The notes: generated by a model not told the origin, from the sequence alone. Counted from the stretch's first letter, positions 1 to 29,014 are shown. The stretch: DNA of 36,096 nucleotides from Haliangiales bacterium (GCA_038321315.1 JBBQEX010000005.1:1-36096); one strand, 5' to 3'. Numbers and translations: made by a program.

Positions 1-456
1 GGGATCGACGAGGCCGAGCTGCTCGGCGAGCGCCTGTCGACCGACGCCGTCCGCATCGGGTTGCCGACCGAGGCGCAGTGGGAGAAGGCCGCGCGCGGCG
101 GGCTCGTCGGCAAGCGCTATGCGTGGGGAGATGCCCCGCCGACGCCGGCGTGCTGCGACTTCGATCGCATGGGCGACTTCACGCTCCGCGATCCGCGCGA
201 GTTGCCGCCGAATGGCTACGGCGTCTACGGCATGTGCGGTGGGGTCTCCGAATGGACGTCGGATCCCTACGACGCGCTCGCCTACGCCGGTGGTCCGAGC
301 GAGGTCCCGCCCGAGCCGCACTTCGTGCTGCGCGGCGGCTCGTGGGCCGACTGTGCCGACGCGGTCACGGTCTCGCATCGCACCAGTCGCGCCAAGGATC
401 GCGCGACGTCGCCGACGATCGGCCTGCGCCTGATCCGCGAGCTGGCCAGCGACTGA
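1..456 (+). CDS. C-terminal part of a SUMF1/EgtB/PvdO-family (formylglycine-generating-enzyme-like, FGE-sulfatase domain) protein; the 5' end lies outside the window
   Basis: The frame is open from position 1. Residues YAWGD, GNGYGVYGMCGGVSEWTSD and RGGSWADCADAVTVSHRTSR match the FGE-sulfatase domain signature (GNVWEW / RGGSW / R-x-R). Confidence 0.65.
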   Translation, partial: GIDEAELLGERLSTDAVRIGLPTEAQWEKAARGGLVGKRYAWGDAPPTPACCDFDRMGDFTLRDPRELPPNGYGVYGMCGGVSEWTSDPYDALAYAGGPSEVPPEPHFVLRGGSWADCADAVTVSHRTSRAKDRATSPTIGLRLIRELASD

Positions 457-488
457 TCCGGATTGGTAAGTCGTGGCACGATGCCGGC

Positions 489-680
489 ATGTCTCAAAAA
501 TTCGAGTACGACATCTACACGGTGGCCTGGGGTCACGGCGGCGCGACCGACGCGATCAAGACCGAGCTCAACAAGCGCGGCGCGCAGGGCTGGGAGCTCG
601 TTGCCACTTCGCGTGACGAGAGCCCCGACGACAAGCACGACGAGGAAGTCGTGATGTTCGTGTTCAAGCGCCACGCCTGA
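489..680 (+). CDS. Small conserved hypothetical protein (63 aa), possibly DUF4177-like
   Basis: ATG at 489 in the frame of ORF 78..680. Acidic C-terminus with a non-repetitive composition. Upstream of this ATG the ORF is Arg-rich junk. Confidence 0.4.
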   Translation: MSQKFEYDIYTVAWGHGGATDAIKTELNKRGAQGWELVATSRDESPDDKHDEEVVMFVFKRHA

Positions 681-692
681 TAGCCTGGTCGC

Positions 693-1400
693 ATGAAGCG
701 CGTCGTCCTCGCCTGGGTGTTCTGTGCAACCGCGTGCGGCGACGATCAGGCGAAGCCCGACGCGGGCCCGCCGGTGGTCGACATCGACAACGGCTCGTGC
801 GGCGATCAGCTGCACTTCACCGGCGAGGTCGTCGACTGGGATTCGAGCGACGCGACGTTCTGCGGCGTGTTCGAGGCCATGTTGCTCGTGCCACCCGACG
901 GCGCGATGGACACGACCGCGCCGAACGGGCGCATCGACATGTGCATCCCGGCGACGCAGGCGACGACGACGATCAGCGTCACGCCGTCGGCGAATGCGTC
1001 GCAGTGCGCGGGCTCGACGTATCCGGTGCCGGGCGCGATCATCGTGAACCGCGACGTGATCCGCGCCGGGGCGCCGTTCTCGGCGCGCCTGTTCACCGCG
1101 ACGCGCGAGACCTCGTTCTTCACGCAGATCGGCGCGCCGTACGACGCGAGCAAGGCGCAGTTGCTGGTGTTCGTCGCCGGCACGCCGCGCCCGGTGTCGA
1201 TCGCGGCGACGCACGGCGCGACCCAGGCCTTCACGAAGGCGACCGCGACCTGGGCCGCGGGCGACACCGGCACCTACGTGTTCTTCGCGAACGTCGCGCC
1301 GGGCTCGACGACGATCACGGTGACCGGTGGCGCGTTCGGCAGCGGCCCGATCGACCTCGCCGCCGGACGGATCACGGCGACGAACGTCTACGCGCTGTAG
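693..1400 (+). CDS. Hypothetical lipoprotein
   Basis: Signal peptide MKRVVLAWVFCATAC with a lipobox Cys, followed by a Thr/Ser/Ala-rich beta-type sequence. Confidence 0.6.
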   Translation: MKRVVLAWVFCATACGDDQAKPDAGPPVVDIDNGSCGDQLHFTGEVVDWDSSDATFCGVFEAMLLVPPDGAMDTTAPNGRIDMCIPATQATTTISVTPSANASQCAGSTYPVPGAIIVNRDVIRAGAPFSARLFTATRETSFFTQIGAPYDASKAQLLVFVAGTPRPVSIAATHGATQAFTKATATWAAGDTGTYVFFANVAPGSTTITVTGGAFGSGPIDLAAGRITATNVYAL

Positions 1401-2896
1401 GCGCGCCAGATCGGGAACTCGTCGCCGACCGCCGGCGCGTCGACCAGGCCGTTCTCGATCGCGCCGTCGTCGCTCTCGGGCTCGCACAGGTAGACCGCGA
1501 TCGCGCCGAGCGGCTGCGCGGTGCGCACGAGGCGCGCGCCGGCCGGGACGCTGCGCTCGCCGCGCGCCCAGGTCACCGTGACCTCGCCGACCTTGGCGGC
1601 CTCGAGGATCTTGCGGCCGCCCTCGCTGCCGAAGCCGGTGACGGTCGCGACCTCGGCGTCGATCGTCGCCGGCGCGGCCTCGCACGCGAGCCCGTGGCGC
1701 TCGAGGTGCTCGGCGACACGCGCCGGGACGACGTACGCGGCGGGCCGATCGACGACGACGGTGCCGACGAAGTTCGCGAAGTAGCGGACCGAGACGCTGG
1801 TCGGTGCGCCGTCGAGCGTGCGGGGCGTGCAGGTCGCGATGTCGATCGGCTCGGGGAACGCCTCGAGCTCGCAGCGCACCGCGATCCGATCGCGCGGCGT
1901 GCGGCAGTTCGCGACCAGCGCGACGATCTCGTCGCCGTGGGTCGAGACGTAGCGCAACGTCTCGAGCACGGTCGCGTAGGTCGTGCGCACGCGATCCGGG
2001 AAGCTGAGGTACGAGTAGCACTCGAGCAACAGATCGAGGCGCCCGGTCAGGCCGCGGTAGTTGCTGCCGAACCTCGGCTGGTGCGGATACGTCATCCAGC
2101 CCTCGGTGACCGGCGCCGTCGGATCGGCGTCGCGGCGGGCGTCGAGCGCACGCTCGTCCTCGACGAAGTTGCCGTACCAGCCGGCGAGCAGCTGGTGATC
2201 GCGCGCGAGCGCTTCGGTCACCGCCGGCATCACGTGCTGGCGCATGTAGGCGATCGGCTCGGGGCGACCGGCGGCCGACGTGTGCGGCACGTCGTACGTC
2301 ATCCAGAACCGGTGGACCGAGCCGTTGGTCGCGTGGTTGTCGATCGTCAGATCGGGCTCCCACACCTGGACGACGCGCGCCTGCAGGAGCCGCATCTCTT
2401 CCGCTTGTTGCCGCATGTAGTCGCGGTTGAGGTTGACGCCGATGCCGTTCACCCGCGTGCCGACCTTGTGCGGGCCGATCTGGCCCTCGAGCTTGGGCAG
2501 GTCGAGCTTGCGGTTCGCCGGATCGATCGCGTCGTTGCCGTCGGGGTTGAACAGCGGCACGACGACGAGCACGAGCCGGTCGAGCAGATCGCCGTGCTTT
2601 CCGTCGAGGAAGTCGCGCGTCATCATGAGCAGCGCCTCCTTGCCCTCGACCTCGCCGGCGTGGATGCCGTTGATCACGAGCACGACCGGCAGGCCGCGAG
2701 CGCGGGCCTCGGCCGGCGTGGCGATGCCGTGGTTGCTCACCACGAGCAGCGGAAGCTCCCGACCCTGCGGGCTGGTGCCGAACGAGCCGATCGCGAGCCG
2801 GCGATCGCCGCGGGCGCCGAGCGCGGCGATGAACTCCATGACGTGGGCGTGGAGCGACGTCTCGGCGTAGTTGGTGGCCTCGGCACGCGTGAGCAT
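1388..2896 (-). CDS. M14-family zinc carboxypeptidase
   Basis: INGIHAGEVEG (HxxE zinc ligands), GTSPQGRELPLLVV, NPDG and NLNRDY motifs. I chose the start at Met29 of ORF 1388..2980 (2896) because the upstream 28 codons are Arg-rich. A start at 2980 is not excluded. Confidence 0.7.
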   Translation of the reverse strand: MLTRAEATNYAETSLHAHVMEFIAALGARGDRRLAIGSFGTSPQGRELPLLVVSNHGIATPAEARARGLPVVLVINGIHAGEVEGKEALLMMTRDFLDGKHGDLLDRLVLVVVPLFNPDGNDAIDPANRKLDLPKLEGQIGPHKVGTRVNGIGVNLNRDYMRQQAEEMRLLQARVVQVWEPDLTIDNHATNGSVHRFWMTYDVPHTSAAGRPEPIAYMRQHVMPAVTEALARDHQLLAGWYGNFVEDERALDARRDADPTAPVTEGWMTYPHQPRFGSNYRGLTGRLDLLLECYSYLSFPDRVRTTYATVLETLRYVSTHGDEIVALVANCRTPRDRIAVRCELEAFPEPIDIATCTPRTLDGAPTSVSVRYFANFVGTVVVDRPAAYVVPARVAEHLERHGLACEAAPATIDAEVATVTGFGSEGGRKILEAAKVGEVTVTWARGERSVPAGARLVRTAQPLGAIAVYLCEPESDDGAIENGLVDAPAVGDEFPIWRAYSA

Positions 2897-3006: not shown

Positions 3007-5118
3007 TTGGATGAGCTGCGATCCGTGAAACTCGTCCTCGCCGCCACCCTGTTGCTCGCCGCGACCCCGGCGTTCGCCGAAACCGAGACGCCCGCCGCCG
3101 ACGAGCCGGTGTTCCACTGCAACTCGAAGCAGGCCGAGGTCACGATCACGTTCAAGCCGGAGATGGAGATCCGCGAGCTGGTGACCTGGGCGGTCGGGTT
3201 CACCTGCAAGAAGTTCATCTTCGAGACGCGCACCGTGTCGCCCGGCAAGAAGGTCACGATCATCGCGCCGCAGAAGCTGTCGCGCGAGGACGCCTACCAG
3301 GTGTTCCTCGCCGGGCTCGAGACCGTCGGGCTCACCGTCGTGCCCAAGGGTGCGGCGCTGTCGATCGTCGACGCGCAGGGCGCGAAGAAGGAGAGCGTGC
3401 CGATCTACAAGGAGCTGCCGCCGTCGAGCGAGCAGGTCGTGCGCTACGTCGTGCGTCCGACGTTCGTGCAAGCCGAGACGCTGAAGAGCGCCTTTCTGGC
3501 GTTCAAGTCCGACGCCGGCGACGTCGTCACGATCGGCCAGGTCGTGCTGATCACCGACTACGCGAGCCACGTGCGCGACATGGCGTCGATGCTGCCGATC
3601 ATCGACGTCCCGGGCGGCACCGATGGCATCTACACGATCCCGGTGCTCCACGCCGACGCGGCCAAGCTCGCCGAGAAGGTCGACAAGCTGCTCGCGCCGA
3701 CGACCAAGGATCTCCCGGCGCCGAAGATCATGGTCGACGAGCGGACCAACACGCTGATCGTGTCCGCGAGCGAGGCCGGCTACCGGCGCGCCAAGGCGAT
3801 CGTCGAGCGGCTCGACATCGCGCTCGCGATGGAGGACGGCGCGTCGATGCACGTCTATCAGCTCGGCAGCGCGATCGCCGAGGAGCTCGCCGCCACGCTG
3901 TCGAAGGCGATCCAGAAGACCAGCGACAAGAAGGCCGGCCCGACGCCGACAACGGCGAACCCGGGCGCACCGCTCGACGCGCTGGCGACGCTCGATGGCC
4001 CGGTCCACATCATCGGCGACAAGTCGACGAACTCGCTGATCATCACGTCGAGCGCGCACGACTACCTGGCGATGAAGGAGATCGTCCGGCTGCTCGATCA
4101 ACCGCGGCGGCAGGTCTACATCGAGGCGCTGATCCTCGAGGTCGCGGTCGGCGATCAGACCAAGATCGGGACCTCGTCGCACGGCGGCACCCAGGCGGGC
4201 AACTCGCTGCTCCTCGGCGGCGTACAGACGCCGGGCACGAGCACGCTCGGCATCGGCACCACCGACGGCGCGGCCTCGCTCGCCGGGCTCAGCGGCCTGG
4301 TCGCCGGGATCGTCGGCAAGTCGCTCGCGAACTCGACGAGCCTGCTCGGCACCAGCATCCCGTCGTACGCCGTGCTGTTCAACGCCGTCGCGACCCAGGG
4401 CGACACCGAGATCATGTCGGAGCCGAGCATCATCGCGCTCGACAACGAGGAGGCCAAGTACAAGGTCGGCACCGACATCCCGTACGTGCGCGGGACCTAT
4501 CCGACGGCGTCGGCGTCGAGCCCGTTCGGCGGCACCGGCACGAACATCGATCGCAAGGAGCTCGCGCTCGAGCTCGACATCAAGCCGCACATCTCGGCCG
4601 ACGACACCGTGCTGCTCGAGATCAAGCACGACTCCAAGGACCTCGGCGACGACAGCTCGCTCGGCCCGACCTGGTCGACGCGCGAGCTCGAGACCCGCGT
4701 GCTGGTGCGCGATCAGCACACCGTGGTGATCGGCGGCCTGATGCAGACCAAGGACATCAACACGCTGACCAAGGTGCCGTTCCTCGGCGACATCCCGGTG
4801 ATCGGGCACCTGTTCAAGTACACCTCGCGGATCAAGAAGAAGACCGACCTCCTGATCCTGTTGACGCCGTACATCATCCGCGACCAGAGCGACCTCGAGA
4901 GGATCCGCGAGCGCAAGGCGCGGCAGCACGAGGAGTTCGTCGAGTCGTACGCCGCGCTGTCGACCGCCCGCTACGTGCCGTCGATCGACTACACGCGCAA
5001 GCGCGGGCTCGTCGAGGAGATCAACCACGCGGTCGCCGACGTCGAGCACGACATCGACAGCCGCAACACGATGACGCCGCCGCAGACCGTGGCGCCGGGT
5101 CCGGTCGAGATGCGATAA
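3007..5118 (+). CDS. gspD: Secretin of the type II secretion / type IV pilus family (GspD-like: N0 domain plus C-terminal secretin domain)
   Basis: Signal peptide (KLVLAATLLLAATPAFA). N0-like region (KVTIIAPQKLSREDAYQVFLAGLETVGLTVVP). Secretin signature VPFLGDIPVIGHLFKYTSRIKKKTDLLILLTPYIIR. Gly/Ser/Thr-rich barrel loops. A GTG at 3025 is an alternative start. Confidence 0.7.
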   Translation: MDELRSVKLVLAATLLLAATPAFAETETPAADEPVFHCNSKQAEVTITFKPEMEIRELVTWAVGFTCKKFIFETRTVSPGKKVTIIAPQKLSREDAYQVFLAGLETVGLTVVPKGAALSIVDAQGAKKESVPIYKELPPSSEQVVRYVVRPTFVQAETLKSAFLAFKSDAGDVVTIGQVVLITDYASHVRDMASMLPIIDVPGGTDGIYTIPVLHADAAKLAEKVDKLLAPTTKDLPAPKIMVDERTNTLIVSASEAGYRRAKAIVERLDIALAMEDGASMHVYQLGSAIAEELAATLSKAIQKTSDKKAGPTPTTANPGAPLDALATLDGPVHIIGDKSTNSLIITSSAHDYLAMKEIVRLLDQPRRQVYIEALILEVAVGDQTKIGTSSHGGTQAGNSLLLGGVQTPGTSTLGIGTTDGAASLAGLSGLVAGIVGKSLANSTSLLGTSIPSYAVLFNAVATQGDTEIMSEPSIIALDNEEAKYKVGTDIPYVRGTYPTASASSPFGGTGTNIDRKELALELDIKPHISADDTVLLEIKHDSKDLGDDSSLGPTWSTRELETRVLVRDQHTVVIGGLMQTKDINTLTKVPFLGDIPVIGHLFKYTSRIKKKTDLLILLTPYIIRDQSDLERIRERKARQHEEFVESYAALSTARYVPSIDYTRKRGLVEEINHAVADVEHDIDSRNTMTPPQTVAPGPVEMR

Positions 5119-5893: not shown

Positions 5894-8666
5894 CCGGGGT
5901 CGCCGGCTTGATCGGGGTCGGAGCTGCGGGCTTGACGAGCTTCATGCCACCGAGCCAGCCGCGCAGCTCGGGCTCGACGAGCTTGCGCCCGGCGATGCAC
6001 TGATCCATCTCCTCGATCGCCTGGCGCACCGCCCGGTCGCCGGCGGGTAGCTTGCCGAACGTCGCGAGGACGTACGCGGCCGTCTCGTCGCGGCGCGTGG
6101 CATCGCAGCTGCCGGTGAACAGCGCCGCGAGCTCGGCGCCGATCGAGTCGGCGGTGCCGTCCGCCGGGATCCGCTTCATGATCGCGGCGGTGTGATCGCG
6201 GAAGAACTGCTGCGCGACCCGGCGGTTGGCCTCGGTCGTCGCGTCGTCGAGCATGCCGAGGGTCTCGCGGATGTCGAGCTTGTCGTCGAGCACGAGGCCG
6301 AGCGCGGCGACCTGGCGCTTGGGGTCGCGCACGCGGGCGAGCGCGATGAACATCTCGCGCCGGCGCGTGCGATCGGCCTCGGTGTAGATGTCCTTGATCA
6401 GCCGCTCGAACAGCTCGGGCTTTGCATCGGTCGCGAGCTCGAGGACGATCGGCCGCACGCCCTGCGGCAGCGCCCGCCAGTCCGCGGCGAGCCGGGTCGC
6501 CTCCTCGAGGATCTTCGGCGCGCGACCGTAGCGGCCGACCGTGCGGATCAGGTCGCCGCGGCTGGCCTCGGCGTCGAGTTCGTCGGTCGGGCGCGACACG
6601 AGGCCGACCTGATCGGCGCCGGGCCCGAACGTCTGTCGAAGCCACTGCTCGTACTTCGGGCGCAGGTCGTCGGGGACGGCGTCGCTGACGTGCTGCGGCA
6701 GCTCGACCGCCTCGGCGATCGTGAAGCGATCGTTGCCGGCGAGCAGCTTCGGCACGAACGACATCGCGAGCGCGAGCGGCAGCTTCGCGGTCCCGGCGTA
6801 GGTGCGCGCCTCGTAGGCGATCGACAGCCGCTCGTTCCACGCGAGCTTGTCCCACGCGACGTCGCGCAGCGCGGTGAGCTGCGCCGCGGTGTACGCCGAG
6901 TGGTAGTAGCCTCGACCGTCGGCGTTCGTGACCATCCACGCCGGACACTTGTCTCCCGCCAGCGCGATCGTCGCGCTCGGCTCGGCCATCAGCGTGCAGT
7001 CCTGGCGCGACTTGCCGGCGCTCTCGTAGTGCACGCAGACCGGCAGGATCCAGGGCCTGGTGTTCTCCGGAGGCGGCGCCCCCGGCGGCAAGTAGCGGCG
7101 CTGCTCGAGCACGACGCGCAGGCTGCTCGGGTGGGTGCAGTCGAGTCTGGCGGTGATCTCGGGCTCGCCGGCCTGATCGAGGAACGTCGCGAACGCCGGC
7201 GCGACGTCCTTGCCCGCGACCTTGCTGATCGCGGCGGCGAAGTCCGCGGACGTCGCGTTGCCGTGCTGCTTCGACTTCAAGTAGGCGCGCACGCCGTCGC
7301 GAAACCGATCGCGGCCGACGTAGCTCTCGAACATGTCGAGGATGCTCGAGCCCTTGTCGTACGTGATGCCGTCGAACGCGCCGAGGATGTCGTCGACCGC
7401 GTCGATCGGCTGGCGGATCTTGCGCGCGCTGACCAGCGCGTCGTCGTCGAGCGCCGAGTGATGGCGGCCGACCTCGGCGAGCTCGTCGTGCCAGCGCGGG
7501 TCGAACTTCGCGCTGATCTGGTGCTCGAGCCAGTTCGCGAAACCCTCGTTGAGCCACAGGTCATCCCACCACGCCATCGTCACGAGATCACCGAACCACT
7601 GATGCGCGATCTCGTGCGCGGCGACGTAGATCCAGCGGTGCTCGCGCTCCTTGGAGGCCTTGGCGTCGAGCAGCATGTCGCGCTCGCTGAACGTGATGAG
7701 CCCGGCGTTCTCCATCGCCGAGAACCCGACGGTCACCGGGATCGCGAGGAAGTCGAGCTTGGCGTACGGGTAGGGCATCCCGAAGAAGTCCTCCTCGAGC
7801 TCGAGGATCTTCGGCGCGGTCTTCGCCGCCCACGCGGCGTCGGCCGCGCGACCCTTGAGCGCGAGGATGTGGATCGGCGTGCCGCCCGTGGTCGCGCCGG
7901 CATCGACGGTCTCGAACGGGCCGACCCCGAACGCGAGGAGGTAGGACGGCAGCGGCTTGGTCGGGGCGAACTCGACGCGCTTGCGCTTGCCGTCGTCGCC
8001 GAACGGCTCGGACTTCACGATCGGCGTGTTGGCGACCGCGACGAGATCCTTGGGCACCTCGAGCGCGAGTCGCCACGGCACCTTGACGTCGGGCTCGTCG
8101 AGGCAAGGGAACACGCGGCGGGCGTAGATCGCCTCGAACTGCGAGTAGACGTAGGTCTCCTTGCCGACGGTCTGCTTGAACGCGCCAGCGGTGTTGAGCA
8201 GCTCGTAGTCGGCGGCGAAGTCGATGGTCAGCGTCCACGTACCGGCGTCGAGCGGCGAGGCGGCGCGCAGCTCGAGGAGATCCTCGCCGTGCGCGGTCGC
8301 GACGAGCTGGACGTCGTGCGCGTGGCGGCTGTCGAACGGATCGCCCGACGACGCGACCGCGCGCGCGATCGCGAGCTTGCGCCCGTGGAGCCAGATCGTC
8401 GACGAGCGCTCGGCGACCGCGCCGGCGATCTCGATGCTCCCGGTGAACCCGGCCTTCGCCGGATCGATCGCGAGCGACACGCGGTACTCGCTCGGCACGA
8501 AGTTGCGCGGCAACCGCAGCTTGGGCTCCGGCGGCACGAGCCCGAGCGGCGACACCGGTGCGACCGGCGCGTCGGTCGTGCTGACGACGATCTTGCCGCC
8601 GGTCACCGCGGGCTTCGCGGGCGTGCAAGCCGCGAGCGCAACTGCCGACGCGATCGCGAGCTTCAT
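5865..8666 (-). CDS. pepN: M1-family aminopeptidase N, lipoprotein form
   Basis: HEIAHQWFGDLVT (HExxH), WLNEGFA (the second zinc ligand Glu) and GAMEN-like SAMENAG. The real start MKLAIASAVALAACTP (lipobox) is at 8664-8666. The upstream 137 codons of ORF 5865..9077 are Arg-rich junk. Confidence 0.85.
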   Translation of the reverse strand: MKLAIASAVALAACTPAKPAVTGGKIVVSTTDAPVAPVSPLGLVPPEPKLRLPRNFVPSEYRVSLAIDPAKAGFTGSIEIAGAVAERSSTIWLHGRKLAIARAVASSGDPFDSRHAHDVQLVATAHGEDLLELRAASPLDAGTWTLTIDFAADYELLNTAGAFKQTVGKETYVYSQFEAIYARRVFPCLDEPDVKVPWRLALEVPKDLVAVANTPIVKSEPFGDDGKRKRVEFAPTKPLPSYLLAFGVGPFETVDAGATTGGTPIHILALKGRAADAAWAAKTAPKILELEEDFFGMPYPYAKLDFLAIPVTVGFSAMENAGLITFSERDMLLDAKASKEREHRWIYVAAHEIAHQWFGDLVTMAWWDDLWLNEGFANWLEHQISAKFDPRWHDELAEVGRHHSALDDDALVSARKIRQPIDAVDDILGAFDGITYDKGSSILDMFESYVGRDRFRDGVRAYLKSKQHGNATSADFAAAISKVAGKDVAPAFATFLDQAGEPEITARLDCTHPSSLRVVLEQRRYLPPGAPPPENTRPWILPVCVHYESAGKSRQDCTLMAEPSATIALAGDKCPAWMVTNADGRGYYHSAYTAAQLTALRDVAWDKLAWNERLSIAYEARTYAGTAKLPLALAMSFVPKLLAGNDRFTIAEAVELPQHVSDAVPDDLRPKYEQWLRQTFGPGADQVGLVSRPTDELDAEASRGDLIRTVGRYGRAPKILEEATRLAADWRALPQGVRPIVLELATDAKPELFERLIKDIYTEADRTRRREMFIALARVRDPKRQVAALGLVLDDKLDIRETLGMLDDATTEANRRVAQQFFRDHTAAIMKRIPADGTADSIGAELAALFTGSCDATRRDETAAYVLATFGKLPAGDRAVRQAIEEMDQCIAGRKLVEPELRGWLGGMKLVKPAAPTPIKPATPVKTTRPHRP

Positions 8667-9490
8667 GCCGGGACCGTAGCACCGCAGCACTGCTTCCACT
8701 TCTTCATCGAGCCACACACGCACAGGTCGTTGCGCCCCGGCTTCATCGGCTTGTTGCGCGCCATCTCGCGCGCCGGCGGGAAGGCGATCGGGCGCGTCGC
8801 GCGACCGAGCTCCTCGGCGGCGGTGAACCGCGCCGCGATCTCGTCGAGCTTCGCCGGCGTGAACCAGTCGAGGGCCTCGGCCTCGAGCTTGCGGGCGAGG
8901 GCGTAGTAGCGCCGCGGGTCGTGCGCGTGATCGAAGTGCGGGACGCGGCGATAGCCCGGAGGCACGTCGACGATCGCGGTCCCGCCGGCGAACCCGTAGG
9001 TGCCGACATCGCGCGCCGGCAACAGCGGCCACGCGATCCCGAACAGCCGGTACGCGACCGCCGCGAGCCCGGACCACGCGCGCGCCTCGTTCTGGTTGAA
9101 CGGATGCAGGTACGCCGCCTCGTCGGCGGGCGCGACCGACTCCGGTACGCCGTACGGCAACCCGACCGGCGTGCCGTAGTTGGGCAGGGCCGGATCGCCG
9201 CTCACCGCGTGGATCAGCTCGTGAACGCAGAACCCGAGCAGCCGGCTATGGATGCACGCGCCGTCGCGCACCGCGACCCAGCGCACCGCGCCGCCGAGTT
9301 GCTGCTGGACGCGCCACAAGGTCGGCGCCGCGAGATCCCAGATCACGGTCTGGCCCCAGCCGCGCATCGCGTCGTCGAACCGGTACAGCGCCGCGATGCC
9401 GGCGGTGCGCTCCTCTACAGACAGCACCTCGTGGCACCGGCACAGGCACGGAAACGGCGTCTGGACTGCATCGACGACCGTGGCCGGCAT
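8663..9490 (-). CDS. Putative zinc-dependent protein with an HExxH motif and a C-terminal SEC-C metal-binding motif
   Basis: FCVHELIHAV (HExxH) and C-terminal CVCGSMKKWKQCCG (SEC-C motif). Its stop overlaps the pepN ATG as ATGA. Start chosen at MPATVV (9490) because the region just upstream is AT-richer and intergenic-like. Confidence 0.55.
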   Translation of the reverse strand: MPATVVDAVQTPFPCLCRCHEVLSVEERTAGIAALYRFDDAMRGWGQTVIWDLAAPTLWRVQQQLGGAVRWVAVRDGACIHSRLLGFCVHELIHAVSGDPALPNYGTPVGLPYGVPESVAPADEAAYLHPFNQNEARAWSGLAAVAYRLFGIAWPLLPARDVGTYGFAGGTAIVDVPPGYRRVPHFDHAHDPRRYYALARKLEAEALDWFTPAKLDEIAARFTAAEELGRATRPIAFPPAREMARNKPMKPGRNDLCVCGSMKKWKQCCGATVPA

Positions 9491-9515
9491 TGCGCGCAGT
9501 GTATTACCGATAGCC

Positions 9516-10349
9516 ATGACCGCGTACGCGTTCCGCATCGTCAACGTGTTCACCGTCGGAGCCGACAAGTTCTCCGGCAATCCACTGTGCGTCTTCGAGG
9601 ACGCGCGCGACCTCACCGACGCGCAGATGCAGCAGCTCGCGCGGCAGATGAACCTGTCGGAGACCACGTTCGTGCTGCCGAGCGCGACCGCCGACGCGCG
9701 CGTCCGCATCTTCACGCCCGGCTTCGAGATGCCATTCGCCGGCCACCCGACGCTCGGCACCGCGAGCGTCGTCGCGCAGGGCCGCGCCGCGATCGCGTTC
9801 GAGATGCGCGCCGGTCGCGTCGAGGTCACCGCCGCCGACGGCACGTACACCCTGCGTGCCGCGCGCGCGCCGGTCACCCGCGCGGTCGAGGCCACGCGCG
9901 ACGAGCTCGCGAGCATGGTCGGCCTGCCCGCCGGCTCGGTGTCCGGCGAGCCACGCTGGGTCGACACCGGCGTCGAGCAGCTCGTGATCCCGGTCGCGTC
10001 GTCGGAGCTCGTGCGCGCCGCCAGGCCGGTGCTCGCGCTGATCGAGCGCTGGGGCTTCTCCGCGGCCCGCCAGGAGGCGATGGCCTACCTGGTCGCGCCC
10101 GACGGCGTCGTGCGCTTCTTCTTCACGTCGAACGGCGCGCTCCTCGAGGATCCGGCGACCGGCTCGGCGTGCGCGAACCTCGGCGGCTGGCACCTCGCGA
10201 TGGGAACCCCACTGCCGTTCACCGCCACGCTATCGCAGGGTGACGCGGTCGGCCGGCCCTCGCGCCTCGACCTCCGGGTCGACACCGATCGCAACATCTT
10301 CGTCAGCGGCGCGGTGATCGAGCTCGGCCGCGGGACCGTCGACCTCTAG
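9516..10349 (+). CDS. PhzF-family phenazine-biosynthesis-like isomerase
   Basis: MTAYAFRIVNVFT...GNPLCVF...LSETTFVLP...FTPGFEMPFAGHPTLG are conserved PhzF/YddE motifs. ATG at 9516 is in the frame of ORF 9252..10349. Confidence 0.75.
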   Translation: MTAYAFRIVNVFTVGADKFSGNPLCVFEDARDLTDAQMQQLARQMNLSETTFVLPSATADARVRIFTPGFEMPFAGHPTLGTASVVAQGRAAIAFEMRAGRVEVTAADGTYTLRAARAPVTRAVEATRDELASMVGLPAGSVSGEPRWVDTGVEQLVIPVASSELVRAARPVLALIERWGFSAARQEAMAYLVAPDGVVRFFFTSNGALLEDPATGSACANLGGWHLAMGTPLPFTATLSQGDAVGRPSRLDLRVDTDRNIFVSGAVIELGRGTVDL

Positions 10350-11085
10350 AAGTAGTACGACAGGCCGATCGTGAACTGGCCGCCCTCGAGCTTGGTCGAC
10401 TCGGCCATGGTCGGCGTCGTCGGCTGGGTCGGGGGCGGGTTGCCGGTGCTCGTCGTGTTCGGCGGGGGCGACGGCATCGGCGGGGTCTCCTTCGTGGTGC
10501 CGCCGTGGTCGTGGTCCTTGCCGATCGTGATCCAGCGGAGCTCGGCCTGGAGCGCGAACCGCTCGAAGCGACGCTCGACGCCGATGCCGAGCTGGCCGTG
10601 CGGCTTGGTCGCCGCGTCGCGCTCTTCCTTGGTCGCTTCGGCGCTCGCGATCGCGGTCTTGCCGAGGCCACCCATCACCCACCAGTTCCAGTCGGCGCCC
10701 GGGTCGAACCGGTAGCGGAGGCCGAGCGTGCCGGACGACAGCTGGCGATCGCCGGCGTTGCCGTCGGGGAGCTGCTCCTTGCCGCCGCCGAGCGCGAGCT
10801 CGAGCTCGAGGTGGCGCGTCGCGCGATAGCGCAGCGCGAGCTCGCCGATCGCGAAGTCGGTCTTCGCGTCCGGGCTCTGCTTGGGTGCGAGGCTGACCTG
10901 GCCGAGGGCGAAGCCGAGCGACCAGCGCTGACCCTTCGCGCACGGCGCGGGGGTGGGGCGGTCGGTTCGACCATCGACGGCCCCATCGCCCCGGGATCGC
11001 TCTCGACCTCACCGGGAGCCTCGGCAAGCGCGACCGAACCGGAGAGCATGATGGACGACGCGAAGACGAGCGCAGTGGGACGCAT
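10346..11085 (-). pseudogene. Outer-membrane beta-barrel protein (about 246 aa) disrupted by a +/-1 frameshift in a homopolymer run; either a pseudogene or a sequencing error
   Basis: The signal peptide MRPTALVFASSIMLSGSVALAEA is in the frame of ORF 10675..11085, which then turns to Arg/Ser junk. The barrel body (…KGQRWSLGFALGQVSLAPK…GELALRYRATRHLELELALGGG…FTIGLSYYF) is in the frame of ORF 10346..10678 and is open upstream to 11009. The frames switch inside ggcgcgggggtggggcgg (about 10944-10963). Confidence 0.55.
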
Positions 11086-11245
11086 GGGTCAGGTATCGTT
11101 CCACAACTCGTGCCACGCCAACAGCGCGAAATGGAGCAAGCCCGGCCTCCGGCTGGGCGTAGATGATCGGGTGGCAGACGTTGCCAGCTGGATTCCCCGA
11201 CACCGGGCGTTGGTAACTCCTACAGTCCTTCCGTACGATAGCGTG

Positions 11246-11998
11246 ATGACGCGGCGGACCTTCGCGGTCGGGGACATTCACGGGGATCTCGGGGCAGTCG
11301 AGAAGCTGTTCTCGCGGATCCCGGAGCTCACTCCGGATGACACGGTCGTCTTCCTCGGCGACTTCATCGACCGCGGGCCCGACTCGGCCAAGGTCGTCCA
11401 GTGGGTGCGCGACCTCCAGGCCAACAGCCCTGCCAAGGTGGTCTGTCTGCGCGGCAATCACGAGGATGCCTGGCTCGAGGTCATCGACCGCGGCTGGGCG
11501 GAGTTCGTGTTCCCGCGCGGCAACGGTTGCTTCGAGTCCCTGCGCTCGTTCGCCGGTGGCAAGCCGCCGACCGACGACGAGCTGCCGACCGAGGACGAGC
11601 TCGAAGCGATGATCACCGGCAGCTTCTTGCCGGTCGAGGTCGTGTCGTGGTTCCGCGAGCTCGCGCACTTCTACGAGGACGAGCACGCGATCTACGTGCA
11701 CGCCGGGATCAAGCGCGTCGACGGCGAGTTCCCGCATCCGTCGAAGGTCGATCCGCCGCGCGCGCTCCTGTGGCTGCGCGATCGCGACTTCTTCGAGCAC
11801 TACCGCGGCAAGCTCGTCGTGTTCGGCCACACGACGACGCGGACGTTGCCGAACGAGCTGTCGACCTACACGCCCGAGGATCCGACGGACCTGTGGGCCG
11901 GCCCCGCGTGCGTCGGGCTCGACACCGCCTGCGGCAAGGGCGGATTTCTCACGGCGTTCGAGCTCCCCGATCGAAAAGTCTACGAATCGCGTGACTGA
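11246..11998 (+). CDS. PPP-family serine/threonine protein phosphatase / metallophosphoesterase (ApaH/PrpE-like)
   Basis: GDIHGDL, GDFIDRGPDS and LRGNHE are the canonical GDxHG / GDxxDRG / GNHE motifs. ATG at 11246 is in the frame of ORF 10505..11998. Confidence 0.8.
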   Translation: MTRRTFAVGDIHGDLGAVEKLFSRIPELTPDDTVVFLGDFIDRGPDSAKVVQWVRDLQANSPAKVVCLRGNHEDAWLEVIDRGWAEFVFPRGNGCFESLRSFAGGKPPTDDELPTEDELEAMITGSFLPVEVVSWFRELAHFYEDEHAIYVHAGIKRVDGEFPHPSKVDPPRALLWLRDRDFFEHYRGKLVVFGHTTTRTLPNELSTYTPEDPTDLWAGPACVGLDTACGKGGFLTAFELPDRKVYESRD

Positions 11999-19327: not shown

Positions 19328-19861
19328 GTGCGGACCCTCACGATCTGCGTCCTCCTCGCGACGCCCGCCGTCGCCGGGGCCGATGGCCTCCATCCCTACG
19401 CGCCGGTCTCGACCTCGCTGTCGGTCATGATCCGCGACGATCACGGCGGAGGCACCGAGACCACCTCGGCGGGCGCGACGCTCGAGCTCGCCGTCGGATC
19501 GGGCCGGTTCCAGTACTTCGCCGAAGGCACCAGCGCCTTTCTCCAGAGCACCGATTCCGGCAGCGAGATGCGCGGCGGGCTCGGCGTGCGCTGGCTCGCG
19601 CGCTCGTTCGAGATCGGTCGCGAAGGTGCGTTCGAGCTCGATCTCGAGGGCCTCACCGGGCTGACCCGGTTGCACCACGACGCCGGTGACACCCGGGTGT
19701 ATCCCGACGTCGGCTTCGGCGTCGGCTGGGCGGTGCGCATGCTCGATCCGCGCATCGTGTTCCGCGTCAGCGCGCGCGCGATGTTCGAGCAGACCCGGCG
19801 TGATGGTATGTCGGCGTCGAGCGTGCCCGGGTTCGTCGCCCTGTTCGGGTTCGGCTACTGA
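19328..19861 (+). CDS. Small secreted beta-rich hypothetical protein
   Basis: GTG start with signal peptide VRTLTICVLLATPAVAGA. Ends …FVALFGFGY. Its stop overlaps the next ATG as TGATG. Confidence 0.45.
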   Translation: MRTLTICVLLATPAVAGADGLHPYAPVSTSLSVMIRDDHGGGTETTSAGATLELAVGSGRFQYFAEGTSAFLQSTDSGSEMRGGLGVRWLARSFEIGREGAFELDLEGLTGLTRLHHDAGDTRVYPDVGFGVGWAVRMLDPRIVFRVSARAMFEQTRRDGMSASSVPGFVALFGFGY

Positions 19862-20421
19862 TGCGCGCGCTGATCGTCACCGTGGTCCTCCTCGTCGCGG
19901 GTCGCGCCCAGGCCGACGGGGTCGACCTCGTCGCCAAGCTCGGGTTTCGCGTCGGCTACGGCCCGATGTCGTTCGCGCACCGATCGGTGAGCGCGACGTC
20001 GATCGAGATCGGCGTCGAGCATCCGGTGTTCGGCAACACGCGCGTGTTCGGCGAGTGGGAGTGGATGTGGCTGTCGGAGCGCGATCCGGATCAGGCGATG
20101 GCGATCGGTCGCGAGCCGACGCACGGCAGCGGCCAGCGCGTCTCGGCCGGCCTGCGGCACGCGCTGATCGCGAAGTCGCACCACGAGATGGCCTGGTACC
20201 TCGACGGCGAGCTCGGCGGCGGCGCGATGCTCGCGAGCGAGGACACGCTCGGCACCCACGCGGTCCCGACCGGCATCGTCGGGATGCGGCTCGGGTTCGA
20301 CTTCAGGAACGGCGACTCGACGTCACGCGTGTTCGAGACCGAGATCCTCGTGCGCGCCCTCGTCACCCCGCGCGACGGCACCGGCCTCCTGGTCGGGGTC
20401 GGCATGCTGTGGGGCGACTGA
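19861..20421 (+). CDS. Small secreted beta-rich hypothetical protein
   Basis: Signal peptide MRALIVTVVLLVAGRAQA. Alternating hydrophobic pattern. Translationally coupled to the upstream gene. Confidence 0.5.
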   Translation: MRALIVTVVLLVAGRAQADGVDLVAKLGFRVGYGPMSFAHRSVSATSIEIGVEHPVFGNTRVFGEWEWMWLSERDPDQAMAIGREPTHGSGQRVSAGLRHALIAKSHHEMAWYLDGELGGGAMLASEDTLGTHAVPTGIVGMRLGFDFRNGDSTSRVFETEILVRALVTPRDGTGLLVGVGMLWGD

Positions 20422-27406: not shown

Positions 27407-29014
27407 ATGCGATCCTCGATCCTCCTGATCTTCGCGGTCGCCGCGTGTGGCGACGACGGTGGTCACCCGGCCGGTCCCGACGCCAACACGATCACGCCGC
27501 CGGGCAAGACGTGTGGCGCGCCGGTCACCGCGGTCGACACCTCGACGCCGGCTCACGTGGTCGGCGACGGCACCGCGGGCTCGTGCACCGAGGGTGCGCT
27601 CGCGACCGCGCTCGCCGCCGGTGGCACGATCGCGTTCTCGTGCGGCGGGCCGGCGACGATCGCGGTCACCGCGACGCTGTCCGTGCGCACCGACGTCGAC
27701 ACCACGATCGACGGCGGCGGCATGGTCACGCTCGACGGCGGCGACGCGGTGCGCATCCTGTCGTTCGATCACGGTGACTATCGCAAGAACCACACGGTGC
27801 TCACGCTGCAGCACGTCACGCTCGCGCACGGCCGCGCGCACGGCACGACGATGTACGCCCCCGCGCCGGCACCGTGCTCGCAGGGCTACTACGATGGCTA
27901 TGGCGGCGCGCTGAACTTTCGCGACGGCGAGCTCGTCGTCATCGACTCGACGTTCGTCGGCAACCAGGCCGAGGCGCTCGGGCCTGACGTCGGCGGCGGT
28001 GCGATCGCGCTGCTCGGCGCGAGCCGCGTGATCATCGCGACCAGCACGTTCACCGGCAACAAGGGCTCGAGCGGCGGGGCGATCAACTCGCTCAACAGCG
28101 AGCTCGAGGTCTACGACTCGAACTTCGATGGCAATGTCGCCGAGGGCAACGGGGCCAACAGTGACGACGCGTCGAAGTGCGCGGTCGTCGCGACCAACGG
28201 CCAGCACCAGGTCGGCTCGGGCGGCAACGCCGGCGCGATCGGGATCGACGGCGGCGACGATCTCACGCACGTGTTCTGCGGCGTGCACTTCACGAACAAC
28301 CAGAGCGGCCTCGGCGCCCTCGGTGGCGCGCTCGGGCGCACGCCGGATCGCGATCGTCAGACCACGGTGATCGACCGCTGTACGTTCGACGGCAACACCG
28401 GCGACTCCGCCGCGGCGCTGTACTTTCACAACAGCGAGCTCGACATCACCGCGACGACGTTCTCGAACAACGTCGCGCAGAAGGGCAGCGGCGCGATCCA
28501 GGCCGACGGCACGCACTTCCAGATCCTCAACTCGACGTTCACCGGCAACCGCGCGATGGCCGGCCTCGGCGGTGCGGTGTCGCTGTTCGGCGGCGACGGC
28601 ACCATCGCGTTCTCGACGTTCGCGGCCAACCACGCCGACGGCGGCGATCCCTACTTCGGCGCCGCGATCGGCGGCAACCCGACGTTGACGCTGGTCGGCG
28701 ACCTGTTCGTCGACAACACCGCGCAGAACCCCGGCGCGCCGATGCAGTGCCACGTGACCGGCACCGGCGACGGCGACCTCCAGTGGCCGCGCGGTCACGT
28801 CGTCGGCGGCGGCGACGATGCGCCGTGCACGCCGACAACGACGTTCGCCGATCCACTACTCGGCCCGCTCGGCGATCACGGCGGCGCGAGCGCGACCTTG
28901 GTCCCCGCCGCGACCGGGCCGGCCCATGGCGCCGGCGTGATGTGCCCGGCGACCGATCAGCGTGGCATGCCGCGCCCGGCGACCGGCTGCACCTCCGGCA
29001 GCGTCGAGCCCTGA
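27407..29014 (+). CDS. Lipoprotein with right-handed parallel beta-helix repeats and a C-terminal DQRG-containing region (choice-of-anchor-Q-like)
   Basis: Lipobox LLIFAVAACG. Repeated beta-helix turns (FVGNQAE, FTGNKGS, FDGNVAEGNGA, FTNNQSG, FDGNTGD, FSNNVAQ, FTGNRA, FAANHADGG, FVDNTAQ). C-terminal DPLLGPLGDHGG…CPATDQRGMPRP. A GAGGGA Shine-Dalgarno lies 5 nt upstream. Confidence 0.6.
   Translation: MRSSILLIFAVAACGDDGGHPAGPDANTITPPGKTCGAPVTAVDTSTPAHVVGDGTAGSCTEGALATALAAGGTIAFSCGGPATIAVTATLSVRTDVDTTIDGGGMVTLDGGDAVRILSFDHGDYRKNHTVLTLQHVTLAHGRAHGTTMYAPAPAPCSQGYYDGYGGALNFRDGELVVIDSTFVGNQAEALGPDVGGGAIALLGASRVIIATSTFTGNKGSSGGAINSLNSELEVYDSNFDGNVAEGNGANSDDASKCAVVATNGQHQVGSGGNAGAIGIDGGDDLTHVFCGVHFTNNQSGLGALGGALGRTPDRDRQTTVIDRCTFDGNTGDSAAALYFHNSELDITATTFSNNVAQKGSGAIQADGTHFQILNSTFTGNRAMAGLGGAVSLFGGDGTIAFSTFAANHADGGDPYFGAAIGGNPTLTLVGDLFVDNTAQNPGAPMQCHVTGTGDGDLQWPRGHVVGGGDDAPCTPTTTFADPLLGPLGDHGGASATLVPAATGPAHGAGVMCPATDQRGMPRPATGCTSGSVEP

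Follow-up and report, generated by a model that had tools for sequence, protein, structure and literature searches.

A conserved outer membrane beta-barrel gene of a Haliangiales bacterium, very probably interrupted by an unprogrammed one-base loss in a short C run

The window, by which we mean the whole 36,096-nucleotide stretch of Haliangiales DNA analyzed here (GCA_038321315.1, JBBQEX010000005.1:1-36096; 70% G+C), contains on its minus strand a coding region for an outer membrane protein (OMP), flanked by a divergent metallophosphoesterase gene and a convergent gene for a PhzF-family protein (Table 1). The coordinates given in the original prediction agreed exactly with the sequence and its translations, which place the gene on the minus strand. 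The start codon at 11085-11083 opens the translation MRPTALVFASSIMLSGSVALAEAPGEVESDPGAMGPSMVEPTAPPP, in which the putative signal peptide passes into a linker at the junction MRPTALVFASSIMLSGSVALA/EAPGEVESDPGAMGPSMVEPTAP. Beyond the linker, this frame continues as Arg/Ser/Ala-rich nonsense until a stop codon at 10675, and this out-of-frame tail has no homologue and is off the phase of the third-position GC content (GC3). The barrel body lies two bases on, in a frame that is open from approximately 11008 to the stop codon at 10346-10348 and that translates as APCAKGQRWSLGF...GGQFTIGLSYYF (also given as ...APCAKGQRWSLGFALGQ...EGGQFTIGLSYYF). GC3 amounts to 0.93 to 1.0 in the barrel frame, the change of phase falling between approximately 10930 and 11010. 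That signal peptide and barrel occupy different frames, as had been claimed, is thus shown by the translations and by this phase switch, as well as by the ortholog alignments described below. At the site of the switch, the plus strand reads G5 (10949-10953), T (10954) and G4 (10955-10958); the C5 tract of the coding strand falls on codons 45 and 46 and is the exact point at which the frame changes. At the other end of the gene, its stop codon (10346-10348) and that of the PhzF-like gene on the plus strand (10347-10349) overlap in the tetranucleotide CTAG, so that there is no intergenic room for terminators; in the orthologous locus L001, the same convergent gene pair overlaps by 10 nucleotides (3816-3825).

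Table 1. Features of the OMP locus and its two neighbors (positions in the window)
Feature	Position	Strand	Remark
Start codon ATG (11085-11083) and putative Sec-type signal peptide MRPTALVFASSIMLSGSVALA	11023-11085	-	
Linker from signal peptide to barrel, EAPGEVESDPGAMGPSMVEPTAP	10954-11022	-	Start-codon frame retained
Frameshift site, coding-strand C5 (plus-strand G5)	10949-10953	-	C4-A directly before, at 10954-10958
Barrel body, 200 codons, predicted eight beta-strands, end GLSYYF	10349-10948	-	Shifted frame
Pro/Thr-rich loop between strands 7 and 8	10391-10522	-	Low pLDDT; in-frame indels
Barrel-frame stop codon TAG	10346-10348	-	
Out-of-frame tail of start-codon frame	10675-10948	-	About 90 codons; stop at 10675-10677
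Metallophosphoesterase (calcineurin-like), divergent neighbor	11246-11998	+	Pfam PF00149, 9.6e-18
PhzF-family protein, convergent neighbor	9516-10349	+	PF02567 at 1.4e-45, full model

A protein search with the two frames stitched together returned 120 homologues (best E value, 9e-99), all of them single proteins and mostly 230 to 270 amino acids long; most span both halves, and many, including the best match, cover 98 to 100% of the query. Since this search did not return the source contig's own proteins (P0132, for example), the lack of near-identical matches among its results is uninformative. When aligned, the family shows a conserved signal peptide followed by a Pro/Ala-rich linker that varies, and then the barrel, with S-Y-Y-F at its end. 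In the window protein, the putative signal peptide (MRPTALVFASSIMLSGSVALA, followed by EAPGE) is positively charged at its N terminus and has a hydrophobic core as well as an A-x-A site for cleavage; 37 homologues have signal peptides that align with it, the motif A-E/Q-A-P-G-E being conserved among them, and it is approximately 80% identical to that of L042 and approximately 70% identical to that of P0001, the closest relatives described below. The predicted YYF signature was recovered as well, the protein ending in GLSYYF, and the Y-Y/F-F pattern varies little or not at all within the family. The window protein retains all 17 residues that are invariant in the family, and no second lesion was found in the 200 codons downstream of the frameshift site.

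About half of the 120 homologues carry a precomputed match to PF13505 (OMP_b-brl), against which the window protein itself scored 22.2 to 22.6 bits (E = 1.3e-4; the curated gathering cutoff is 28.7). An AlphaFold2 model of the 200 residues in the barrel frame (mean pLDDT, 88.5) contains eight strands, and a Foldseek search of the PDB matched it to the OmpA transmembrane domain, NspA, OmpW, OprF-N, Ail and OmpX, with E values from 2e-6 to 3e-4. The Foldseek probability was 1.00 both for the OmpA transmembrane domain (1qjp/1bxw; target-normalized TM-score, 0.81) and for NspA (1p4t; 0.78), further structural relatives being OmpX (1qj9), Ail (3qra) and OmpW (2f1t). By its predicted fold, then, the product is a small eight-stranded outer membrane beta-barrel that resembles OmpA-TM, NspA and OmpX and is of the Pfam OMP_b-brl kind. 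Like PF13505-type barrels, it begins with a Sec signal peptide, is built of eight antiparallel strands with long extracellular loops and ends in an aromatic residue (...SYYF). It differs from the solved barrels, with which it shares merely 11 to 17% sequence identity, in the Pro/Ala-rich linker that follows the signal peptide and in a Pro/Thr-rich loop of approximately 45 residues between strands 7 and 8. Unlike the known barrels, moreover, its family has so far been found almost exclusively in metagenome-assembled genomes of Kofleriaceae/Haliangiales (Myxococcota), to judge from the relatives present in genome collections. It is, in short, a new and uncharacterized member of a well-known class of small eight-stranded outer membrane barrels, and the locus brings to light a well-conserved Kofleriaceae family of such proteins with an apparently hypervariable Pro/Thr-rich surface loop.

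The loop between strands 7 and 8 (residues 143 to 186) was modeled with a pLDDT of approximately 61 to 75, and it differs from its counterpart in L001 by in-frame indels of 12, 9 and 9 nucleotides, in columns that are variable in the family alignment. On the basis of the eight-strand topology, it would be extracellular loop 4. With its Pro/Thr-rich composition, and with length and sequence that vary across the family, it resembles a hypervariable surface loop.

The closest orthologous loci, in which the flanking genes are of the same kinds as in the window, are L001 and L002, which encode P0001 (67 to 70% protein identity to the window OMP), and L042, a JGI contig that is cut inside the gene (79% identity over 175 residues). 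The order metallophosphoesterase, OMP, PhzF is conserved: a metallophosphoesterase gene lies beside the OMP gene in L001, L002, L042, L043 and most Kofleriaceae loci, and the PhzF-like gene is syntenic in many loci. DNA alignments against L001/L002 and L042 contained a single gap that was not a multiple of three, namely, a 1-nucleotide gap in the window, at coding-strand GCC-CCACCCCC, and all remaining gaps (3, 6, 9, 9 and 12 nucleotides) were multiples of three. The gap thereby maps inside the G/C homopolymer tract, ggcgcgggggtggggcgg, in which the frame had been predicted to switch. Upstream of it, the frame-0 translation of the linker agrees with those of L042 (MGPSMVEPTAP) and P0001 (MGPSMVRPT), so that the start-codon frame follows the relatives through ...MVEPTAP; the barrel frame follows them from APC... 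on. At this point both closest relatives have two codons; five C's (10953-10949) take their place in the window, which is therefore one base short. Addition of one C gives MVEPTAPPPAPCAKGQRW, which is equal in length to MVEPTAPAAAPCSMGQRW in L042 and to MVRPTVETAAPCAMGQRW in P0001; a comparison with orthologs, which had been suggested as a means of finding the intact length, thus yielded a codon count identical to that of the closest relatives. The most economical reading of these alignments is a contraction from C6 to C5, in which case C6 (CCC CCC, Pro-Pro) would represent the intact ancestral allele; a contraction from C5 to C4 in the adjacent run is an alternative reading. The site itself reads GCACCGGCGGCGGCG in L042 and GTCGAGACCGCGGCG in L001, neither of which is a homopolymer.

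The same comparison bears on whether the locus contains one gene or two. A mechanical listing of open reading frames returned two, of 136 and 110 amino acids, as might be expected if a small secreted peptide were encoded next to an independently translated barrel. However, the barrel frame lacks its own signal peptide and offers no ATG, GTG or TTG before 10678, which lies in the middle of the barrel (strands 5 to 6), and the 136-amino-acid frame is nonsense, off the GC3 phase, past residue 46 or so. All relatives carry a single gene, of approximately 230 to 270 amino acids, and in 34 of 34 complete orthologous loci the signal peptide and the ...YYF end are found in one open reading frame. The idea of two genuinely separate genes, which the original prediction had named as the finding that would speak against it, is hardly credible and was rejected on the basis of this orthologue comparison, and the proposed single beta-barrel gene split by a frameshift stands.

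We consider it very probable, then, that the locus holds one conserved Kofleriaceae (Myxococcota) OMP gene that has suffered an unprogrammed loss of one base, be it through a consensus error or in a recent null allele. The base would have been lost from the short coding-strand C run (C6 to C5), in the variable linker before the first strand. As the sequence is written, the product started at ATG 11085 would be an exported signal peptide followed by approximately 90 nonsense residues, and no barrel could be made. The lesion would be the outcome of homopolymer slippage rather than of a programmed event.

The statistics of G/C runs in the window are consistent with slippage. Thirteen G/C runs of at least 5 nucleotides were seen in the 36 kb, versus 48 +/- 6 expected under a first-order Markov model; there are no runs of at least 6 nucleotides within the window, and G5-T-G4 is its only G-run/G-run double tract. 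By an arithmetic estimate, a random interval of approximately 14 nucleotides would overlap a G/C run of at least 5 nucleotides less than 1% of the time. Since such runs are rare, the coincidence of the indel with one of them points to slippage. The lesion accordingly has the hallmark of a slipped strand, and the slip could have been made by a polymerase, either cellular or of the sequencing chemistry, or by a base-caller or consensus algorithm.

Slippage at a homopolymer in the 5' part of the coding sequence, and in a gene for a surface-exposed OMP whose extracellular loop is long and variable, also raises the question of phase variation, in which the C tract would act as a reversible slipped-strand contingency switch (C6 ON, C5 OFF) that allows, for example, escape from receptor-using phages or from predators. 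Surface proteins are the typical targets of the poly-G/C contingency loci of Neisseria and Campylobacter, the indel sits exactly in the homopolymer, and C6, as the inferred ON allele, would exceed every other G/C run in the window. Even so, a dedicated switch is unlikely. Three defining features of a contingency locus could be tested: the tract is indeed placed such that a change in its length switches the reading frame, but it is not of hypermutable length, and a conserved or variable-length tract is absent from the site in relatives. With 5 nucleotides (6 when intact), it falls under the published hypermutable lengths for G/C tracts, which are given as at least 7 for Campylobacter jejuni (PMC4965091) and above 8 for Bordetella, a high-GC genus (PMC1891110). 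The tract is lineage specific, no homopolymer being present at the frameshift site in any of the 36 orthologous loci examined (the longest G/C runs in these 36 genes measure 3 to 6 nucleotides, at scattered positions), and the window contains fewer, not more, G/C runs than expected.

The nearest precedent for a short switch is the C6 tract of bvgS, described as phase variable in the high-GC genus Bordetella (PMC1891110) and, in work cited there, as undergoing reversible frameshifting at a low rate in Bordetella pertussis. As in the window, bvgS combines a frameshift at a short C run with a high-GC genome and a protein that is switched off. However, the tracts of bvgS and of the Neisseria and Campylobacter loci are conserved and usually 7 nucleotides or longer, with length polymorphism demonstrated within cultures, whereas the window tract is lineage specific and 5 to 6 nucleotides long. 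That the C5/C6 run is a genuine low-rate switch of the bvgS type, with the OFF allele dominating the sampled population of uncultured Kofleriaceae under, for instance, phage or predator pressure, strikes us as improbable, and we regard the more general proposal of a reversible contingency tract with the same skepticism. If true, it would give a first indication that a surface protein can undergo phase variation by strand slippage in the Myxococcota. Of the two causes originally offered for the split, a sequencing indel (or, likewise, a plain slippage mutation) fits all evidence, while phase variation has fared less well.

In programmed recoding, a -1 shift by the ribosome, or slippage of RNA polymerase along the C run, would restore the frame, so that the full-length barrel would be made from the sequence as it stands. 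The direction needed is indeed -1, and one can conceive of tRNA-Pro slipping in the P site from CCG to CCC at C CCC CCG. Against this, the zero frame (ACC GCC CCA CCC CCG CGC) is free of X XXY YYZ heptamers, and the 99 nucleotides downstream are no more stable than shuffled sequences (minimum free energy, -38.6 versus a mean of -41.2 kcal/mol; z = +0.75). Transcriptional slippage in bacteria requires much longer runs, typically of A or T. Moreover, a frameshift was found in 0 of 120 protein homologues and 0 of 34 complete loci, and by this lack of conservation in orthologues recoding, a very remote prospect in our estimation, is largely refuted.

What is left to weigh within the preferred reading, the unprogrammed loss of one base, is whether that loss occurred in the data or in the cell. 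The retention of the invariant residues, the coding-type GC3 and an omega of 0.30 in the downstream codons favor an artifact or a very recent event. The latter value (dS, 0.42 versus L001 over the barrel) indicates purifying selection across the whole divergence; since dN/dS reflects that entire period and cannot date a recent lesion, omega does not separate an error from a recent mutation. Among the errors that remain in long-read assemblies of bacteria and metagenomes, those in homopolymer length are described as the commonest (PMC8812927, PMC9262707). The window resembles such consensus errors in showing a single-base contraction of a G/C run in an otherwise perfect gene, with a C-terminal fragment and an over-extended neighbor called as a result, and it differs from them in that the run is short and the lesion is a lone one. 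A GC3-phase Viterbi segmentation, combined with a check of stops and starts, yielded 36 coding segments in the 36-kb window; each of the other 35 terminates at a stop of its own and has an in-frame start, and no second frameshift was detected among the 36. This absence of other frameshifts disfavors a very error-prone assembly and so weakens the case for an artifact, just as the strict conservation of the OMP gene in its family weakens the case for a real loss. It is also common for surface proteins to have genuine null alleles of recent frameshift origin. In our rough estimation, a sequencing or assembly consensus error comes somewhat short of an even chance and a very recent null mutation in the population is nearly as probable, with a small remnant, smaller than that granted to phase variation, left for readings other than these three.

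Gene calling in a protein collection shows the traces of the lesion: applied automatically to the NCBI contig, it produced a 109-amino-acid C-terminal fragment of the OMP (10346-10675, minus strand) and a metallophosphoesterase of 315 amino acids (11051-11998, plus strand), the ATG of which, at 11051, makes it run antisense across the signal-peptide region of the OMP, while its orthologues measure 249 to 250 amino acids. The presence of this fragment and of the over-extended neighbor in the NCBI contig implies that the frameshift is in the deposited sequence, and both are knock-on effects of it. For the sake of annotation hygiene, the locus should be entered as a single frameshifted OMP gene (a pseudogene or one to be corrected) instead of as a fragment beside an over-extended neighbor. 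In exact look-ups, neither the repaired proteins (C6 and C5-A-C5) nor the 136- and 110-amino-acid fragments were on record; the only OMP entry was the 109-amino-acid fragment from the NCBI contig itself, from which six other window proteins that we looked up are on record as well.

Reads of the same strain are public, as follows from a Logan contig, L041 (SRR19962015_257368), that was assembled independently from run SRR19962015 and is 100% identical to window positions 1 to 2441. No Logan products covering the OMP were found, an exact 26-nucleotide pattern beside the site had no match in JGI metagenome contigs, a protein-guided scan of those contigs did not find a close relative, and GTDB species representatives offered relatives at 52% identity or less only. 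As a clean case confined to one site, the locus could serve to test how accurately the source assembly renders homopolymers. The frameshift is ordinary and of the textbook homopolymer type, and a new lesson would emerge only if reads showed real heterogeneity in tract length.

Several other genes of the window deserve a brief mention. The minus-strand gene at 8666-9538 encodes a 291-amino-acid protein, the sole Pfam match of which is a C-terminal SEC-C metal-binding motif (CVCGSMKKWKQCCG); in several Kofleriaceae loci, it adjoins the PhzF gene. A 186-amino-acid protein encoded at 19861-20421 (plus strand) has a signal-peptide-like N terminus (MRALIVTVVLLVAGRAQADG) and an alternating hydrophobic pattern, and it may be another small outer membrane barrel; it had no Pfam match and formed a singleton cluster in a collection of 15 billion proteins. 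Finally, the plus-strand genes at 693-1400 and 27407-29014 encode proteins with lipoprotein-like N-terminal signals ending in ...ACGDD, and the 535-amino-acid one of the two has many Gly/Asn/Thr repeats, which hint at a beta-helix.
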